From a phage: a stretch of DNA of 64,000 nucleotides. The position numbers were made by a program, and so were the translations under genes. The stretch is from the NCBI GenBank assembly GCA_020279385.1, contig GCA_020279385.1_4762.1, one strand, 5' to 3'. The notes beneath the pieces were generated by a model. It was not told the DNA's origin, ran no database searches, and saw only the letters and a list, made by a program, of their open reading frames with translations. Positions 1,576 through 45,683 of this stretch are shown here, one piece after another; the stretch's first letter is position 1; each line of letters begins with the position of its first letter.

Positions 1576-2262
1576 TTAGTCGGTGTAGCTGGAGTCAAGG
1601 TCACACGCGATCATATAAGATACGGTTTCACTTGCCAGCCATACAGCCTTACGGCGAGTGAAGCTCAGTTTGTAATCTCCGAAGTCCGTAGCAACCAGTT
1701 TCATGTTATCTTTACGAATAAAGAAATGGAAGTCGGCGGTTCCGGTATATTCGCCCATATCAAGACAAAACATCTCATTAGGATTATTTTTGTCAATCTC
1801 TTCCCAACCTTTGATCATCAGACGACCATCAATCGGTAGAAATTCAAGGCGATCCACTTTAAGCTGATTGCTCATTTTCATAAGCTGTTTCAGATCGTCG
1901 TTGCTCAGTTCGTAATCTACATCGCTTGCCGGTGGAGTAACTCGGCCTTTCGGTGATACGATAGCAGCAGCACTAGCACCAGGATAATTAATTTTCAGAC
2001 GATCATTAGACACACGAATGTTACCAGTGCGGTTATCAACCGTAATATCTGCTTCATCGCCTACCAGATTCAGAATACCCAAGAAAGAGTTAAGATCATA
2101 GATCCCAATTTCGTGTTCCAGTTCTTGATTCAGAGTCGCTTCACCATATACAACGTTTGTCATGTTTTTGGTGATCAGGACGTTTCCTTTTTTCAGGATG
2201 ATACCTGGGTTAATAGCGGAAAAGTTTTTCAGGGTAGCAATGGTTTCTTTAGTCAGTTTCAT
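1576..2262 (-). CDS. 45: Sliding clamp gp45
   Basis: MKLTKETIATLKNFSAINPGI... matches T4 gp45 (MKLSKDTTALLKNF...); ATG at 2262, ORF-track start is a TTG one codon upstream. Confidence 0.95.
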   Translation of the reverse strand: MKLTKETIATLKNFSAINPGIILKKGNVLITKNMTNVVYGEATLNQELEHEIGIYDLNSFLGILNLVGDEADITVDNRTGNIRVSNDRLKINYPGASAAAIVSPKGRVTPPASDVDYELSNDDLKQLMKMSNQLKVDRLEFLPIDGRLMIKGWEEIDKNNPNEMFCLDMGEYTGTADFHFFIRKDNMKLVATDFGDYKLSFTRRKAVWLASETVSYMIACDLDSSYTD

Positions 2263-2292
2263 CAAATCACCTTTATCATGTTAATCAATTAA

Positions 2293-2691
2293 TTACGGGT
2301 TTACTTCGTGCTCATTTTGAATCTTTAGCATTCTTTCGATAAATTTTTTCTCGGCTTCCTTATCGGATGAGTGAGTATACTTCAATCCAATGTAAGCTGT
2401 CAAGTATTGTTGCAGAGCATAGACAGTAACAGGATTCTTTGCGGTCTTTTTTCCGTCGAGATATACCAGATCACCACGAACATCAAACGCAAGTTTACGA
2501 CGAATCACATCATCAACAAATTTATCTAGGACAAAATACCACTCAATACACTCTATCCCGTGACGGTAGTTCATTACATCATTATCTTTGATATAGTCAA
2601 ACGGAATATGACATAATTTACTATTTTGTAGGATGAATAGCATTTGTTCTTTTAAGCTCATACGTTTCATTCTATCACTTCCCATCAGCAA
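2293..2691 (-). CDS. rpbA: RpbA-like RNA polymerase-binding protein (by position and size)
   Basis: 132-aa ORF immediately upstream of gene 45 as in T4; start uncertain. Confidence 0.5.
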   Translation of the reverse strand: MLMGSDRMKRMSLKEQMLFILQNSKLCHIPFDYIKDNDVMNYRHGIECIEWYFVLDKFVDDVIRRKLAFDVRGDLVYLDGKKTAKNPVTVYALQQYLTAYIGLKYTHSSDKEAEKKFIERMLKIQNEHEVNP

Positions 2692-3067
2692 TTGCGATCA
2701 GACGAGTTACTACTACGCTAGCGGCTTCAATCAGCAGTTCATCAGTGTCAATCTGATAACCCTTTTCGAGAATATCTTTACCTCGAATAGTTTTAGCGCC
2801 TTTAGCAATTGAATCATCGTAATACTTGCGCATTGCCGCGATCCATTCTTTTTGCACCATATCATCAATATGCGCGTACAGTTCAAAGCGTGCTTGCTGC
2901 GGGATAACCTTCATTTTAGCTTTCTCGCTTTCCGGCATTTGTAGTACCCACGCTTTACGGATCTTGTTCATTGCTCGGTCAAATTCGAGACTGGTTTTCT
3001 TGTTCTGAATGTCTGCTACAGTAATTTTAGCCAGGTTTGCGGAAGTAGTCATAATATTAATCTCCAA
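2675..3067 (-). CDS. Hypothetical early protein (gene 45.2 position)
   Basis: 130-aa ORF in 46-45 interval. Confidence 0.5.
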   Translation of the reverse strand: MEINIMTTSANLAKITVADIQNKKTSLEFDRAMNKIRKAWVLQMPESEKAKMKVIPQQARFELYAHIDDMVQKEWIAAMRKYYDDSIAKGAKTIRGKDILEKGYQIDTDELLIEAASVVVTRLIAIADGK

Positions 3068-3082
3068 AATAAAATCAGTATA

Positions 3083-3313
3083 TCACGTTCTAAAGTTTGT
3101 TGCAACCCCAGCATCAGGGTAATCGAGTTTATCAAAGTTGGGGACCAGCATAAACTCATGATGACGACAAGACAACATTTTTGTTATGTCTGCATCGCTG
3201 TATATGCTGTTTTTCATATCCCCCATACTAACTACATATTCTTCACCGGAATATAGATTGATTAAGGTATACAATTCTAACTCCGGCTGCGTTACTCTAT
3301 CAAATGTTAACAT
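3083..3313 (-). CDS. Hypothetical protein
   Basis: 76-aa ORF between gene 46 and 45.2-like. Confidence 0.4.
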   Translation of the reverse strand: MLTFDRVTQPELELYTLINLYSGEEYVVSMGDMKNSIYSDADITKMLSCRHHEFMLVPNFDKLDYPDAGVATNFRT

Positions 3314-4982
3314 TCATTTCAGTGAATCGCCCACGTTTAACCATCTTGAGATGACGGCTAAAATCATCAGGGTTATGGTCACGATGGCTGATAATATACA
3401 CGTTATCATCTAACTTGTCAATGATGGAATCAAGTGCTTTTACGCCCTGAACGTCCGTAGCCCCATCATAAATTTCGTCGAGTACCAACAAAGAAATATT
3501 AGTACCAGATACTTTACCAGCAACATCACGCCATGTAAAGAGCATCGCAAGGTCAATACGTGCCTTTTCGCCTTGACTGAATGATGTATACGAAAACGAT
3601 TCACGCCCCCGTGATTTGATTGTTTCGTTAAACTCTTCATCTAGCGTAAAGATATAATCCGCTTCCATGATATCAAGATAATACGCAATCCGATCATTGA
3701 AATATGGAATATATTTCTTGACGATAGACGCCTTAACACCGGAATCCTTCAACATTTCTGTTACAAATCCACGATGATATTTTTCAAGAACTAGCTTTGA
3801 TTTTTCATTAGTAATCTCTACCAGTTCGTGTTCCAGTTTAGCAAGTTCTTCGGAATTGTCAACCCTTTCTTTTTGCAATTCTTGCATTGCTTTCTGGATC
3901 TGTTTAGCCCGGCCTACAGATGCCGTTAAATTCGCTCTCTGTGACTCTATAGCGCGTTTAATTTCCAAGACCTTAGTTTGTGCTGTCTGGAAAGAATTGG
4001 CCTTCTCCGCGTATTCTACGCGTTTCTCGTCAATCAGAGACAGTTTATGTTCTGCTTGTGCTTTTTGTTCGCGTACAGCTTGATCATTACCCTGAATGAT
4101 CGGTTGTGTGCACGTAGGACAGATCCCGCCTTTCTCGTGCATATGGATAACACGGTCAAAGTTCTGGATCTGCGCACCAATCTGTGCGATAGCAGTATTA
4201 ATTTTAGCCAATGCCGCGCTAGGATCTTCCGGCATAACAACAGCCAATAGCTCATCGGTCAAGCGCGTTTCTTCGGCTTTAAATGCTTTAGCCGATTCTA
4301 CCTCTTTATCATACATATTCTGCAAACGCTGTAGATTCTCGGCACTAGCCTTGCTCGCGTCCTCTATGTACTTTTTATGAGTGTTGATTTGTTGCTGAAC
4401 GTGATTAGCTTTCATTTCCTGCATTTGGATATTCTGGGTAATCTCGCGCACATACGCTTTATTCAGTTTATCCATTTCGCCTAGCGTAGCAATATCAAGC
4501 AAATCCTCGACCAGTTTACGGCGACCCGCTGCCGGAAGACTCATAAACGGAACATAACCAGCAGTGCCTAAAACAACGATCTGTTTAAAGCTGGCTAGGT
4601 TCATTCCTATGATACCTTCAAAATATTCCTGAAAGTCTTTGGTGCTTGCGCTCTCGTCGATCTTTTGACCGTCGCGATGCACTTCGAATACTTCCGGTTT
4701 TTGACCACGTTTGATATAAAACTCTTTCCCGTCCAGTTCAAACCAGACTTCGACTAACAGTTTCTTTTTGTTGACGCTGTTAATCAATTGGCCTTTCTTG
4801 ATACTACGAAACGGTTTACCGAACAACACAAAGCAAAGCGCCTCGATCATTGTTGATTTACCAGCACCGTTAACACCAGTGATTAGTGTCTTTTTGAATC
4901 CGTCTAGCTGAATCTCTACAGGTTCAGCACCCACGCTCATTATATTTTGATAGCGCAAGGTTTTAAAATTTAACTTTGCCAT
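3300..4982 (-). CDS. 46: Recombination endonuclease subunit gp46 (SbcC/Rad50-like ATPase)
   Basis: 560 aa, N-terminal P-loop GVNGAGKST, coiled-coil middle with CPTC zinc hook, C-terminal LLVLDE signature. Confidence 0.95.
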   Translation of the reverse strand: MAKLNFKTLRYQNIMSVGAEPVEIQLDGFKKTLITGVNGAGKSTMIEALCFVLFGKPFRSIKKGQLINSVNKKKLLVEVWFELDGKEFYIKRGQKPEVFEVHRDGQKIDESASTKDFQEYFEGIIGMNLASFKQIVVLGTAGYVPFMSLPAAGRRKLVEDLLDIATLGEMDKLNKAYVREITQNIQMQEMKANHVQQQINTHKKYIEDASKASAENLQRLQNMYDKEVESAKAFKAEETRLTDELLAVVMPEDPSAALAKINTAIAQIGAQIQNFDRVIHMHEKGGICPTCTQPIIQGNDQAVREQKAQAEHKLSLIDEKRVEYAEKANSFQTAQTKVLEIKRAIESQRANLTASVGRAKQIQKAMQELQKERVDNSEELAKLEHELVEITNEKSKLVLEKYHRGFVTEMLKDSGVKASIVKKYIPYFNDRIAYYLDIMEADYIFTLDEEFNETIKSRGRESFSYTSFSQGEKARIDLAMLFTWRDVAGKVSGTNISLLVLDEIYDGATDVQGVKALDSIIDKLDDNVYIISHRDHNPDDFSRHLKMVKRGRFTEMNVNI

Positions 4983-41595: not shown

Positions 41596-42252
41596 TTAAA
41601 TGTTCGCGAGAATCGCGCTTTCAAATTCTTCTAATGTACCATTATTTATGATAATGGTTTCACCGTCAATAGGCAAAATTCCTTTTTCGGTGGAGTGAGT
41701 CGATACAATACCAGTATCACGCTGAATATGCAACACCTTAGCACCCATAGCACGCATGAGAGCAATTTCAATAGGCTGACGCACATCAACCACTACAAAA
41801 TACCCTTCTTCATTTTTGCGCTTCATAAACTCATTCACGAAGAGATTACACCAATAAAGCGGATTGATCAAGTTAACCATTATATCAGTACCGAGAGTGG
41901 TTAACATGAGACGAATAGACCAGACGTTATTATGTTTTTCGCCGATCTCATTAACGACCTTGTAAATCTCAGCCAGACGATCACAAGTAAAGGAACTACC
42001 GCCATACTTCGAATCTAGCATAAGCAGACACTGAATAAACCACTTATGCGCGGTATAGGTATCAATACCTAGATCGGCTTCTCTGTCACGCCCTAACCCG
42101 TCAAAGTCAAGATAAGTCAGACCTAAGTCTGGTTGACATTCGCATAAGATTTCTTTGATCGGTGCTGCCAGTTGATAACTATGTCCATCAATTATTAACG
42201 CGGCAGTGTCTTTTCCTACTCGCTTTTTACCACAAAGTGCAATCAATTTCAT
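41596..42252 (-). CDS. 1: dNMP kinase gp1
   Basis: MKLIALCGKKRVGKDT P-loop and colinearity with T4 gp1. Confidence 0.9.
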   Translation of the reverse strand: MKLIALCGKKRVGKDTAALIIDGHSYQLAAPIKEILCECQPDLGLTYLDFDGLGRDREADLGIDTYTAHKWFIQCLLMLDSKYGGSSFTCDRLAEIYKVVNEIGEKHNNVWSIRLMLTTLGTDIMVNLINPLYWCNLFVNEFMKRKNEEGYFVVVDVRQPIEIALMRAMGAKVLHIQRDTGIVSTHSTEKGILPIDGETIIINNGTLEEFESAILANI

Positions 42253-42267
42253 TATATAAGCCTCTTA

Positions 42268-42858
42268 TTACTTTCTAAAAGCAGGGTGCATAGCTTTAAT
42301 ACCTTCCACCCGTTGACGATCCGCCGCCTGAATTGCTGGGCGAGGAACGATCAGTTGACCATCACGTTCAATGCTCATTGTTTTAAAGGGAAGAATTGCA
42401 GTACACACCAGAGATTCATGCATATCATCGGTGTATGTTAACTCAAGTTCCCCCAATTGTGAACACCAACAACCATAAAAGTTAAAAGTGCACACAATGT
42501 TACGTCGTTCGTTGTCCATCATGTGAACTTGAACGGCTTCCGGCATTGAATCCTTCCACGCAGTGGAGTTACCGTTATTGTAGTCTACTATAGAAAGCAT
42601 CCATGTGTAAAGGTTTAGATAGCTTTCCAAATGCTCATCGACAATAAACCGGACTACCAACGGGTCAAACTCCACATGACTAGACGGATAATCAGCGACC
42701 GCCAAACCATATTGACCAGCAACTTGCTTAGTCGGTGGAATGGTTATAGCCGGGAGTGTAACACCTTGAGCATTTAAAGTAAAGCCTTTTGTTAGTTGTC
42801 CATCTGGAATATTGATCTGCCAGTTGCTGGGGTTAGCATAGTTAAAGAGATTAGACAT
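42268..42858 (-). CDS. 3: Tail completion/sheath stabiliser gp3 (by synteny)
   Basis: 196-aa ORF at the gene 3 position between gene 1 and gene 2; late-promoter-like TAATAAATA upstream. Confidence 0.6.
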   Translation of the reverse strand: MSNLFNYANPSNWQINIPDGQLTKGFTLNAQGVTLPAITIPPTKQVAGQYGLAVADYPSSHVEFDPLVVRFIVDEHLESYLNLYTWMLSIVDYNNGNSTAWKDSMPEAVQVHMMDNERRNIVCTFNFYGCWCSQLGELELTYTDDMHESLVCTAILPFKTMSIERDGQLIVPRPAIQAADRQRVEGIKAMHPAFRK

Positions 42859-42879
42859 TACTGATTCCTCAAATGAAAA

Positions 42880-42888
42880 TATTTATTA
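42880..42888 (-). promoter_or_regulatory. Late-promoter-like TAATAAATA (gene 3)
   Basis: One mismatch to TATAAATA, about 22 nt upstream of gene 3 ATG. Confidence 0.35.
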
Positions 42889-43012
42889 ACAATTGTCGCT
42901 TTGCGACGTGCCGGAGGCACTGACTACTTTTTAACCGAAACAAATTTTTATTATTCTAAAGATCTTTCTTCGTTTTGGTTATGTTTTAACCAATAACTAT
43001 ATTTTTATACAG

Positions 43013-43021
43013 TAATAAATA
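43013..43021 (+). promoter_or_regulatory. Late-promoter-like TAATAAATA (84-aa ORF)
   Basis: Same 9-mer as at gene 3, divergent orientation. Confidence 0.35.
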
Positions 43022-43047
43022 AAACGGGTACTATACGAGGACTTCTT

Positions 43048-43302
43048 ATGACAGAAGACATTTTGTTAAAACTCTATGATCGTCTGGATAACGAATTAGC
43101 AACATTGCGGGGTGAAGTTCTCTATTTGTCTAAATGCAATACAGATCTGCTTAAGCAGATTGCAGAAAGGGATGATCAAATAAAATCCCTTTCAGGTGCA
43201 TTACGTGATCGCGACAAGGCATTAGAGATTTTACAGCGTGTTACCAATAAGGAAGAATTAAAAGACTTCTTACATGGTTATGCTCATGCTATCGATCTAT
43301 AA
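43048..43302 (+). CDS. Hypothetical coiled-coil protein
   Basis: 84-aa plus-strand ORF with TAATAAATA late-promoter-like motif 27 nt upstream and terminator hairpin downstream. Confidence 0.5.
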   Translation: MTEDILLKLYDRLDNELATLRGEVLYLSKCNTDLLKQIAERDDQIKSLSGALRDRDKALEILQRVTNKEELKDFLHGYAHAIDL

Positions 43303-43305
43303 TAA

Positions 43306-43330
43306 AAAAGCCCGTCATTGACGGGCTTAA
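43306..43330. terminator. Bidirectional terminator between convergent genes
   Basis: AAGCCCGTCA-aT-GACGGGCTT hairpin, U-rich on both sides. Confidence 0.6.
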
Positions 43331-43332
43331 TT

Positions 43333-44361
43333 TTAATATGTATCAGCTAATTTAATTATGTTATCAAGTTCCGTGATTGGTAAAGTTTCTGTGTATCCAT
43401 CTTTCAACATGGATTTATCAACAACGCCACAATGATAAGTTCTCTTTATTTCCTTTTCAAGTTCCCACGGAATCCTGCCATCAACACTTTGTTTGACGTA
43501 AACAAGTTTGTGAACAAACTTAGATTTCTGCATATGTTGTTTCATTCTGGTTTCCGGTAATTCATTGGTTACACCAAACTTTATAAATTTATCATCTAAC
43601 GTCTGGATATAAAAATATCCCATCTCAGATGGACGATAGCCAGAAGAACTACATTTCGGACACCCTTTAGCGTTTCTGTTGAACGTACAATATCTTACAG
43701 AATTTTCTGCGTCATGTTTTGTACATTTAAGTTTTATCCATGAATTTGCAGTACCTATCCATTCACCATCGACACCTATATATTCATACCCTAACTTTTT
43801 ACATTTATCTTCTATTCTAGATAGTGCATCTTCCACGGGAACGACATATTCCGTCTTAAATTGTTCAGCCGCACATTTCTTACAACCACATGTACCATGA
43901 TTTTTAAAATCAAAGAACTTTGTATTCTTCCAAATATGGTCATGTTTCTTGCATCTAAGAATCATCTTAGTAACTTGTGATTTCCAGCCACCAACAAATC
44001 CCAAAAATTCATAATCAAGATCTTTACATTTTTCTTCAATGAATTTGGTTGCTTCCTCTTCTGTCATAACTCCCCTACATTGAGGGCAACCAACAATAAC
44101 CTTTTTAGCATAGAAACTATTACTGGAAACATCATAGACAGTTCCATGCTTATTGCATTGGATAACAGATCTAGTCAATTTTCCTTTCCATTCTCCAGAA
44201 AATCCTAAGAATGTATGGTCGACAAGTTTACACCTTTCAATAACTTTATCCGCAAATTCTCTAGGAGATTTTGTTACCTTGTTTACTCTGTATTCTATTT
44301 TTTCCGGTTGACGAAGATAATAAACGTGGGGATTGCTCCCCACGGAATTAATATTAAGCAT
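43333..44361 (-). CDS. Putative homing-endonuclease-like nuclease (three Zn-ribbon repeats + C-terminal GIY-YIG-like motif)
   Basis: 342 aa from ATG 44361 just after gene 2 stop; three about 45-aa repeats (GxWxG..CxKH..CxxC) and GYFYIQT...KFGVT; inserted between genes 3 and 2. Confidence 0.6.
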   Translation of the reverse strand: MLNINSVGSNPHVYYLRQPEKIEYRVNKVTKSPREFADKVIERCKLVDHTFLGFSGEWKGKLTRSVIQCNKHGTVYDVSSNSFYAKKVIVGCPQCRGVMTEEEATKFIEEKCKDLDYEFLGFVGGWKSQVTKMILRCKKHDHIWKNTKFFDFKNHGTCGCKKCAAEQFKTEYVVPVEDALSRIEDKCKKLGYEYIGVDGEWIGTANSWIKLKCTKHDAENSVRYCTFNRNAKGCPKCSSSGYRPSEMGYFYIQTLDDKFIKFGVTNELPETRMKQHMQKSKFVHKLVYVKQSVDGRIPWELEKEIKRTYHCGVVDKSMLKDGYTETLPITELDNIIKLADTY

Positions 44362-45175
44362 CCTTCCACACCTTCCTTGCATCATAGTTTTTACCTTTAG
44401 AAACAAATTTATATGTGTTAAGGTAGATAATATTGCTCCAGTCTTTCGGGCTAATCTCAACAAGTTTTGTTTTAATGTGTCCCGGAAGATATGCTTTGAT
44501 CATGTGGTCACTACCACGCATACCTTTTACATCGCTCCATTTGATTTTTAAGCGTGTTTTATTACTCAAGGTAGGAGTAGATGCATATTGCTTTAAAAGT
44601 GCCTCTAAAAACTGCTGACGGGCTTTAGGCGTTACATAGTGTAAGTTAAGACCCAGCATTACAGTATTACCCGCCTTTGTCTTAGAATCACCCAGACAAA
44701 TGATCAGCGGGAAAACATCCCAATATGGCAAAGTGTCTTTATACTTCGCATCATACATAAAGGTATAGATTCGACCTACTTGCGGTTTTACAATCTGGTG
44801 TCCCTTTATTCCCGCTTTTATTGTTTTAGTAAACCACTCCTGTGATTTTTCTTTAGGACGACTCTTTGATACAGCACGCATAGACGCACGAAAATCATTA
44901 ATCATCATCATTGCGCGTTGCTGCTTATTGAGACCCTTTGCACCTTTCCCTTTTAGTTTTTCAACTTCTATTGCTGTTTTAATTTCGCTTGCATAACGAG
45001 ACATACTTTTAGTGAAAGTCGCATAGGCTATTCCCTTAGAATCTGCAAATGCTTTAGCTGTCATTCCTTTGGCTTTTGCTTTCGCAAATTCTACACCCAA
45101 TTCGACCCACTGTTTAGACTTTCTTTTTTGGGGAGACGGCTTTTCGTCTTCTGTGATTATTTCAAATACGCTCAT
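44354..45175 (-). CDS. 2: DNA end-protector protein gp2 (by synteny and composition)
   Basis: 273-aa Lys-rich ORF at gene 2 position (T4 gp2 is 274 aa). Confidence 0.65.
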   Translation of the reverse strand: MSVFEIITEDEKPSPQKRKSKQWVELGVEFAKAKAKGMTAKAFADSKGIAYATFTKSMSRYASEIKTAIEVEKLKGKGAKGLNKQQRAMMMINDFRASMRAVSKSRPKEKSQEWFTKTIKAGIKGHQIVKPQVGRIYTFMYDAKYKDTLPYWDVFPLIICLGDSKTKAGNTVMLGLNLHYVTPKARQQFLEALLKQYASTPTLSNKTRLKIKWSDVKGMRGSDHMIKAYLPGHIKTKLVEISPKDWSNIIYLNTYKFVSKGKNYDARKVWKDA

Positions 45176-45186
45176 AATATTATCCT

Positions 45187-45660
45187 CTATTTGTTAAGCC
45201 CTTTAAAGCCAAACACTTTCTTTAATGCATGTTCGGTGATGATCTTAAACTCCATGTTATGCTTTTGGCATAATTTCACGGCAGCTAACCATTTTTCAGT
45301 ATTTTTTGTGTATGTCCATACTTCATGCATATATCGTTGCTTTGTCTTCGCGGTCATTCTTTTTGGCTTTTCCGGTGGCCTTGTCTCTTTAGCTGGTTTA
45401 ACTTCCCATAAATGCTCCTTGCCATCATCAAACTTAACGTAAAAATCCATAAAGTATCTGTGTCTTTTCCCGTCTGTCGATGACTCATAAGGAATTACTA
45501 CGGTCTCAGATCCCCATTTTGCAACTCTAGGATTGCGGTCTAGCCACTGCATGATCCATCTTTCCCAGCTTGAACGGTATGTGATCTTACGTATATCCCC
45601 TTTATACTTTTCCTTATTCTCAGGAACATACTTGCCCTTATAAGTGTTAGATCCTCCCAT
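45187..45660 (-). CDS. 4: Head completion protein gp4 (by synteny)
   Basis: 157-aa ORF at gene 4 position, divergent from gene 53. Confidence 0.65.
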   Translation of the reverse strand: MGGSNTYKGKYVPENKEKYKGDIRKITYRSSWERWIMQWLDRNPRVAKWGSETVVIPYESSTDGKRHRYFMDFYVKFDDGKEHLWEVKPAKETRPPEKPKRMTAKTKQRYMHEVWTYTKNTEKWLAAVKLCQKHNMEFKIITEHALKKVFGFKGLNK

Positions 45661-45675
45661 TTTAGCACCCTTTAT

Positions 45676-45683
45676 TATAAATA
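45676..45683 (+). promoter_or_regulatory. T4-type late promoter TATAAATA (gene 53)
   Basis: TATAAATA 33 nt upstream of gene 53 ATG. Confidence 0.55.

Follow-up and report, generated by a model that had tools for sequence, protein, structure and literature searches.

Genes 3 and 2 of T4 are neighbours separated by 106 bp. In the phage considered here, the homologues of these genes are separated by two ORFs, one of which resembles a homing endonuclease. The question raised by this locus is what the intervening DNA is, and whether it is mobile. The window, the whole stretch of 64,000 nucleotides that was analysed (GenBank assembly GCA_020279385.1, contig GCA_020279385.1_4762.1), derives from a phage of the RB49-like, T4-related genus Krischvirus and is 97-99% identical by megablast to RB49, Phi1, ECD7, JSE and their relatives. 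The region is the late-gene block of a T4-like phage. Its minus strand encodes homologues of gene 1 (dNMP kinase, 41596-42252), gene 3 (42268-42858), gene 2 (DNA end protector, 44354-45175) and gene 4 (45187-45660), and the list of ORFs continues beyond gene 4 with homologues of gene 53 and gene 5 on the plus strand. Between genes 3 and 2 lie an 84-aa ORF on the plus strand (43048-43302; phrog_17832, function unknown), which is a homologue of RB49p130 and Phi1 ORF130, and a 342-aa homing-endonuclease-like ORF on the minus strand (43333-44361; phrog_681), which is a homologue of Phi1 ORF130.1. The list of ORFs agrees with the earlier note in its description and coordinates of both ORFs, and the neighbourhood of genes 3 and 2 in T4 is likewise as that note had it.

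The earlier note regarded the two ORFs as one inserted pair. Both do lie within a gene pair that T4 has side by side, and they are convergent, with one terminator common to both. However, the 84-aa ORF is found in all 59 Krischvirus records surveyed, with at least 95% amino-acid identity (95-100%), whether or not the nuclease gene is present, and most of these records lack the nuclease gene. The ORF has no homologue outside Krischvirus among the other phage records. Moreover, comparison with the RB49 junction places the boundary of the indel to the right of the terminator. Only the nuclease gene is therefore an indel, and the presence of the 84-aa ORF in 59 of 59 records, together with the position of the boundary, rules it out as part of the mobile unit. 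It is extremely improbable that the two ORFs were put between genes 3 and 2 as a single two-gene module. Judged by its distribution, the 84-aa ORF is a genus-specific resident gene unrelated to the nuclease gene.

The nuclease gene is present in some Krischviruses and absent from others that are nearly identical. Compared with RB49, the inserted segment spans 43332-44357, with 1,026 bp replacing 5 bp (GTTAT), as revealed by the junction comparison and an alignment of 12 loci. The insert is placed exactly, with the stop codon of gene 2 on one side and the downstream terminator on the other. DNA of the nuclease gene was found in 11 phage records, which represent nine distinct phages (Skers, ELT3, ECD7, Cognac, FL37, FL38, pEJ01, G2248 and Phi1), as a single copy and always at the same locus. 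About 43 Krischvirus records, including RB49, GEC-3S, KFS-EC and kaaroe, lack exactly this segment. The gene in the window is 99.6% identical in DNA sequence to that of Skers, annotated as a putative GIY-YIG nuclease family protein, and 84% identical to Phi1 ORF130.1. At the protein level, the orthologues at this site (Phi1 ORF130.1, ECD7 gp128 and the Skers protein) are 74-99.7% identical and do not differ in kind from the 342-aa protein. No paralogue of the protein was detected elsewhere within the window by tblastn, and blastn revealed no repeated DNA in the window, though megablast had reported a second place in the record. Comparison of the gene 3-gene 2 junction with and without the insert, as the earlier note had suggested, thus bears out its view that the gene is mobile. 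According to that note, a C-terminal motif that failed to align with the GIY-YIG fold, along with a gene found at this position in all relatives, would speak against its reading; the gene is instead sporadic.

The architecture of the 342-aa protein places it among zinc-finger-containing endonucleases. Its PHROGs match is to phrog_681, labelled 'endonuclease' (E 1e-78), and Pfam detects CapR (PF21817) in three stretches (E 4.7e-15; 56 bits against a cut-off of 24.2), as well as a weak match to DUF723. A search of NCBIfam with the protein gave no match. The CapR-type zinc-finger repeats, all encoded on the minus strand, comprise residues 33-98 (repeat 1, 44068-44265), 101-165 (repeat 2, 43867-44061) and 176-240 (repeat 3, 43642-43836). 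Repeats 1 and 3 were delimited with Pfam (CapR/DUF723 for repeat 1), the AlphaFold2 model and the repeat alignment, and repeat 2 contains the best Pfam CapR stretch, residues 108-161. When the three repeats are aligned to each other, the residues C, K, G, G, W, C, K, H, G, C and C are invariant, and C137, C160 and C163 of repeat 2 are invariant among homologues. In the AlphaFold model each module is a helix followed by three strands and a helix. The three tandem repeats of the form GxW...CxKH...CxxC described previously are therefore real, but their period is about 65-74 aa instead of 45 aa. The figure of 45 aa corresponds to the GxW-to-CxxC span only.

The mean pLDDT of the full-length AlphaFold model is 84, but its pTM is only 0.37, and for this reason the model does not predict how the domains are arranged relative to each other. 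With this model as query, Foldseek found nothing in the PDB beyond weak similarities to tandem dsRBD proteins, a consequence of the beads-on-a-string build of the protein. The C-terminal domain (residues 241-342; 43336-43641, minus strand) was therefore modelled alone, which gave a pLDDT of 95.9 and a pTM of 0.88. The model lends moderate confidence to a GIY-YIG alpha/beta fold. A Foldseek search of the PDB with the model of the domain returned nothing significant, the top match being a UPF0213/GIY-YIG-like protein (E 0.87), and the family profile had no meaningful matches among PDB sequences. The domain has no Pfam match even at E<=1, including T5orf172, MUG113 and PF01541. Its motifs read FYI ... 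KFG, with the first Tyr retained but an invariant Lys in place of the second. Its profile did not align with the I-TevI catalytic domain in hhalign (probability 0.2%), using an I-TevI sequence that was checked against 1MK0/1LN0; there is no detectable sequence-profile similarity between the two. Judged by the GIY and YIG motifs and by profile similarity to I-TevI, the domain is not a canonical GIY-YIG domain.

The affiliation of the C-terminal domain is revealed by its homologues. With the domain alone as query, phmmer retrieved 453 cluster representatives, and among the best 150 of these the domain lies at or near the C-terminus. The proteins of 65 sampled representatives contain CapR (44/65), MUG113 (27/65), DUF4379 (20/65), DUF723 (16/65) and T5orf172 (13/65). 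Among full-length homologues, 13 of 30 match MUG113 and 11 of 30 match T5orf172. Residues Y251, K261, G263, R272, G295, E302, G322, E325 and T326 are invariant across 66 sequences. Alignment with Odn, a T5orf172 protein, by hhalign was significant (E 0.0033 over 90 columns) and proceeded motif by motif, pairing Odn R148 with R272 and the catalytic residue of Odn, E180, with E302. Mutation of E180 abolishes cleavage by Odn, and Barth et al. equated this residue with E75 of I-TevI (PMC8263062). R272 and E302 are thus the predicted catalytic residues of the 342-aa protein. The GIY-YIG-like motif that had been noticed near the C-terminus is real and conserved. On these sequence relationships, the C-terminal domain is best placed as a divergent subgroup of the MUG113/T5orf172 branch of the GIY-YIG superfamily.

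Conservation of the domain also bears on whether the protein is still a nuclease. It could be the product of an inactive or decaying homing endonuclease gene, or a domesticated regulator whose CapR repeats bind DNA without cutting. CapR itself demonstrates that the zinc-finger module can repress alone (PMC8096241), and the 342-aa protein has Lys at the position of the second Tyr in the YIG motif and does not conserve the helix-1 His/Tyr. In addition, about half of the codon differences among the nuclease alleles change the amino acid, such that these are about as frequent as synonymous differences, which fits relaxed selection and is compatible with recent inactivation. However, both deviations, Lys in place of Tyr and the lack of the His/Tyr, occur throughout the family and are also features of Odn, which is active (PMC8263062). 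All invariant residues of the nuclease domain are kept, and the ORF is intact in all nine carriers, with no frameshift or stop codon in any allele. A regulator would also not be expected in only about one-sixth of isolates. It is unlikely that the gene is inactive or encodes a regulator, and a nuclease with a predicted catalytic Arg and Glu is the favoured reading of the protein.

The expression signals at the locus differ between the two ORFs. TAATAAATA occurs three times in the window. Gene 3 and the 84-aa ORF, which are on opposite strands, each have one of these copies 30-35 nt upstream. The copy on the minus strand (42880-42888) is 30 nt upstream of gene 3; that on the plus strand (43013-43021) is where the earlier note had placed a late-promoter-like sequence ahead of the 84-aa ORF. 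Gene 3 is a bona fide late gene. Since two copies are positioned upstream of gene 3 and the 84-aa ORF, 'late-promoter-like' seems a reasonable label for this motif. The nuclease gene has no TAATAAATA of its own according to the motif search of the window. A bidirectional intrinsic terminator, active on both strands by prediction (43308-43328; -16.3 kcal/mol, z -5.7), forms the left boundary of the insert. It serves the 84-aa ORF and the transcript that runs from gene 4 through gene 2 (and the nuclease gene where present), and it is annotated on both strands in GEC-3S. The bidirectional terminator described previously does exist, but it lies between the convergent genes and does not bracket them. 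The stop codon of the 342-aa ORF is 4 bp away from it.

The start of the nuclease gene is closely joined to the end of gene 2. Its ATG (44361-44359) overlaps the gene 2 stop codon (ATGCTTAA) and arises within the final gene 2 codons, which read GAT GCT TAA in carriers and GAT GCA TAA in RB49. A terminator-like hairpin on the minus strand (44325-44344), with an 8-bp stem containing six G-C pairs followed by UUUAUUAU, is located 10 nt past the gene 2 stop and 17 nt inside the nuclease ORF. The hairpin is identical in every carrier, and an analogous hairpin lies between gene 2 and the start codon of a paralogue in JSE. The nuclease gene is probably expressed by read-through from gene 2, attenuated by this hairpin. 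Attenuated expression is known for other phage homing endonuclease genes.

The gene 2 side of the insert differs from the rest of the flanking DNA. Across the 12 aligned loci, the flanks are 97-99% identical, and carriers differ from non-carriers at 0.7-2.6% of positions on both sides. In contrast to this background, the last 23 codons of gene 2 (44358-44425, minus strand) are recoded in the window: against each of the six insert-less loci, 18-19 of the 68 positions differ (binomial P 1e-13 to 1e-24), and the changes are synonymous in nine codons and alter the amino acid in five. All carriers except Phi1 have the same sequence as the window across this patch. Such a pattern is as expected for a recoded target or a co-conversion tract, and the patch is a putative recognition or cleavage region in insert-less phages. 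A scan of all records with this segment revealed that MIZ4, MIZ5 and kvi lack the insert yet have the carrier-type patch, and in kvi the sequence switches from RB49-type to carrier-type inside the patch, indicating a crossover. Insert-less phages with a carrier-type patch would be expected if conversion tracts vary, or if a phage loses the gene but keeps a resistant flank. The left flank of the insert has no informative polymorphism. Alternatively, the recoded patch could be no target at all but common linked variation that came from a diverged donor.

Two further alleles extend the comparison. The nuclease allele of Phi1 is 30-45% divergent over 43693-44092, corresponding to residues ~90-223 and therefore to repeats 2 and 3, whereas the ends of the gene are near-identical. 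A search of the phage collection for the donor of this middle segment found it in Phi1 only. The gene 2 patch of Phi1 represents a third version. JSE encodes a 380-aa paralogue at the same left junction, with four zinc-finger repeats and the same C-terminal domain, that is 27% identical to the protein in the window; the end of gene 2 in JSE is yet another allele, common to four further records. The site downstream of gene 2 is a hot spot, with the JSE paralogue at the same junction and HNH-type genes nearby, between genes 2 and 4 and between genes 4 and 53 in Cognac and MIZ6. The 3'-end alleles of gene 2 can be set beside the nuclease found with each: none with the RB49-type, the 342-aa protein with the window-type, a protein with repeats 2 and 3 replaced with the Phi1-type, and the four-repeat paralogue with the JSE-type. 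It is conceivable, if doubtful, that the locus is a natural series of modular retargeting of a zinc-finger-array nuclease.

The analysis shows the presence/absence indel, the family of the domain, the conservation of its predicted catalytic residues, a recoded flank that accompanies the insert, and alleles of recombinant origin. On this basis we read the 342-aa gene as a free-standing homing endonuclease gene of the T5orf172 family. We assign this reading a probability of roughly 0.8; cleavage, the position of the target, homing and attenuation are the parts that we infer. In a mixed infection, the zinc-finger array would recognise the RB49-type sequence of an insert-less genome at the gene 2 3' end and the terminator junction, and the nuclease domain tethered to it, with R272 and E302, would cut near the bound site. 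Repair by recombination from the carrier genome would copy the gene along with the adjacent gene 2 patch, resulting in co-conversion and marker exclusion. The carrier genome would be spared because the insert splits the site and the site is recoded. Expression would occur via read-through of the late transcript from gene 4 to gene 2, damped by the hairpin at 44325-44344.

Similar genes have been described in other phages. T5orf172 homing endonuclease genes were defined by Barth, Dunham and Seed in 2023; 87% have zinc fingers of the CapR, DUF723 or DUF4379 type, which often occur as repeats, like 'beads on a string', and the genes are variably present, adjoin essential genes and swap DNA-binding modules (PMC10448857). 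The putative ones of ICP1 (gp53, gp121, gp130, gp165 and gp174; PMC10448857) are like the 342-aa gene in that they encode an N-terminal zinc-finger array and a C-terminal T5orf172-type domain, vary among close isolates, lie beside essential structural genes and exchange DNA-binding modules, as seen here in the Phi1 allele. The 342-aa gene differs in that it resides in a T4-like Krischvirus and that its C-terminal domain itself falls below the Pfam T5orf172 and MUG113 models. The earlier note considered a homing endonuclease with the nuclease domain at the C-terminus unusual. The zinc fingers and the GIY-YIG-superfamily C-terminal domain do make the protein a homing endonuclease candidate, but the T5orf172 family carries its nuclease domain C-terminally, and the domain order is therefore normal and represents a published standard architecture (PMC10448857, PMC8096241). 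The PLE repressor CapR of V. cholerae, after which PF21817 is named, has homology to zinc-finger regions at the N-terminus of ICP1 proteins that bear T5orf172 at the C-terminus (Netter et al. 2021, PMC8096241), and its zinc-finger module is homologous to those of the 342-aa protein. However, CapR is a transcriptional repressor with a single module and no nuclease domain, whereas the 342-aa protein has three modules and an intact nuclease domain.

The T4 Seg proteins provide a second comparison. Like the 342-aa gene, the genes for SegF and SegG are intergenic between conserved genes, are not associated with an intron and have a linked recoded flank or co-conversion tract. Seg-mediated marker exclusion is established. 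Unlike the 342-aa protein, the Seg proteins and I-TevI have an N-terminal catalytic domain and other DNA-binding modules, such that the domain order is reversed.

Not all T5orf172 nucleases are homing enzymes. Odn (ICP1 gp88), the one biochemically proven T5orf172 nuclease, has the same type of C-terminal nuclease domain as the 342-aa protein and is a proven anti-satellite nuclease (PMC8263062). Accordingly, the 342-aa gene might be derived from a homing endonuclease gene and now benefit the phage by cutting the DNA of the host or of a competitor, such as a satellite, plasmid, prophage or co-infecting phage. The intact gene in nine of nine carriers and the presence of homologues in Salmonella and E. 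coli chromosomal contigs would fit such a role. However, Odn is not a homing element; it targets the satellite replication origin by means of a RepA_N-derived DNA-binding domain borrowed from the replication initiator of its target, whereas the 342-aa protein has the generic CapR repeats of homing-type members. Several features point to self-propagation at the locus: the gene is sporadic, is inserted precisely between genes and is linked to a recoded flank, and a second paralogue occupies the same site. No candidate external target was found. It is highly unlikely that the gene serves in conflict with other DNA, and the distinct nuclease-based exclusion module suggested by the earlier note finds no specific support. 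Homing remains the best explanation for the 342-aa gene.

The kind of gene is known already. Databases list its orthologues as 'endonuclease' or 'GIY-YIG nuclease family protein', and the family was described in 2021-2023. The 342-aa gene is an ordinary example of a known family and carries little weight as a discovery. Krischviruses are not mentioned by Barth et al. 2023, who state that T4 itself lacks the T5orf172 family and that homing of the ICP1 T5orf172 genes is unverified (PMC10448857). A search of the literature found no experimental homing by any T5orf172 enzyme and no paper that treats this Krischvirus locus. In the available part of Arbiol et al. 2010, segC is the only Phi1-unique homing endonuclease named, most unique genes are described as ORFans, and ORF130.1 is not mentioned (PMC2839356).

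Finally, the locus has practical value as a test system for homing by T5orf172 enzymes in easily crossed E. coli phages. It offers natural variants in the form of carriers, insert-less RB49-type phages that are putatively sensitive, insert-less carrier-type phages that are putatively resistant, and an allele with swapped repeats. If modular retargeting were true, with each repeat reading a short block of DNA and swaps tracking the flanks, the locus would provide the first 'recognition code' for T5orf172 enzymes, and the tractable E. coli phage pair RB49 x Phi1 would provide the first direct test of T5orf172 homing. The nuclease insert also explains one of the 'unique ORFan' differences between Phi1 and RB49 without shuffling of promoter-stem-loop cassettes. 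T4-like phages other than T4 do host the T5orf172 family.

The protein encoded by the nuclease gene varies in its start among annotations. Gene 2 contains two in-frame ATGs at 44361-44385 that precede the annotated nuclease start by 21-24 nt, and some annotations adopt them, including those of phage FL37 (350 aa) and of P0001, a cluster representative. Distant homologues of the nuclease begin approximately 20 residues downstream of the start of the window protein. The N-terminal ~20 residues thus seem to have originated at the insertion site itself.

Each of the three CapR-type repeats (43642-44265) is modeled as helix-3 strands-helix, an order of elements shared with the double-stranded-RNA-binding domain (dsRBD). 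When the full-length model of the 342-aa protein was compared to the PDB with Foldseek, tandem dsRBD proteins were the top matches, all weak: TARBP2 (7zpk_C; E 1.4e-3, probability 0.6), R2D2, NF90, DGCR8 and ADAR2. The modeled likeness could reflect a genuine shared fold, or else it could be an artefact of a multi-domain query.

Megablast with the 3.7-kb query revealed a second matching place in most related records, outside the window. A check of the nuclease DNA across the phage records placed it outside the nuclease gene, and a search of the window for repeated DNA found no counterpart there.

The 84-aa ORF (43048-43302) encodes a protein with 100% identity in most of 59 Krischvirus records, and no homologue was found among other phage records outside Krischvirus. 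Pfam matches are weak and only of coiled-coil type. The ORF is a gene restricted to the genus, and it is probably expressed late. Twin outward-facing TAATAAATA motifs have gene 3 on one side (42880-42888, minus strand, directed toward gene 3) and the 84-aa ORF on the other (43013-43021, plus strand, directed toward the ORF). Between them, two small G+C hairpins lie next to each other: GTCGC-TTT-GCGAC and GTGCC-GGA-GGCAC (42895-42920). A canonical TATAAATA is present at 45676, upstream of gene 53.

In phage JSE, the corresponding site downstream of gene 2 is occupied by a 380-aa CapR-repeat/T5orf172-type paralogue (1902-3044 of its locus, minus strand), which shares 27% identity with the window protein and has a terminator-like hairpin of its own at 3067-3087. 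JSE gene 2 is divergent and shorter (248 aa), an allele also found in four other records.

Junctions neighbouring the nuclease site are filled in relatives by other mobile-nuclease-like genes, the stretch of genes 3, 2, 4 and 53 being a hot spot. In Cognac, genes 2 and 4 are separated by a 341-aa ORF whose N-terminus is HNH-like (3803-4825 of its locus, plus strand), and in MIZ6 an annotated HNH homing endonuclease of 232 aa lies between gene 4 and gene 53 (3141-3836 of its locus, minus strand). In Cognac, ELT3, G2494 and MIZ6, gene 4 alleles differ by 14-47% mismatches per 100 bp over the region corresponding to window 45190-45648, with flanks still 97-99% identical. An HNH gene adjoins divergent gene 4 in two of the four phages; the two that lack an adjacent HNH gene may have kept a conversion footprint.
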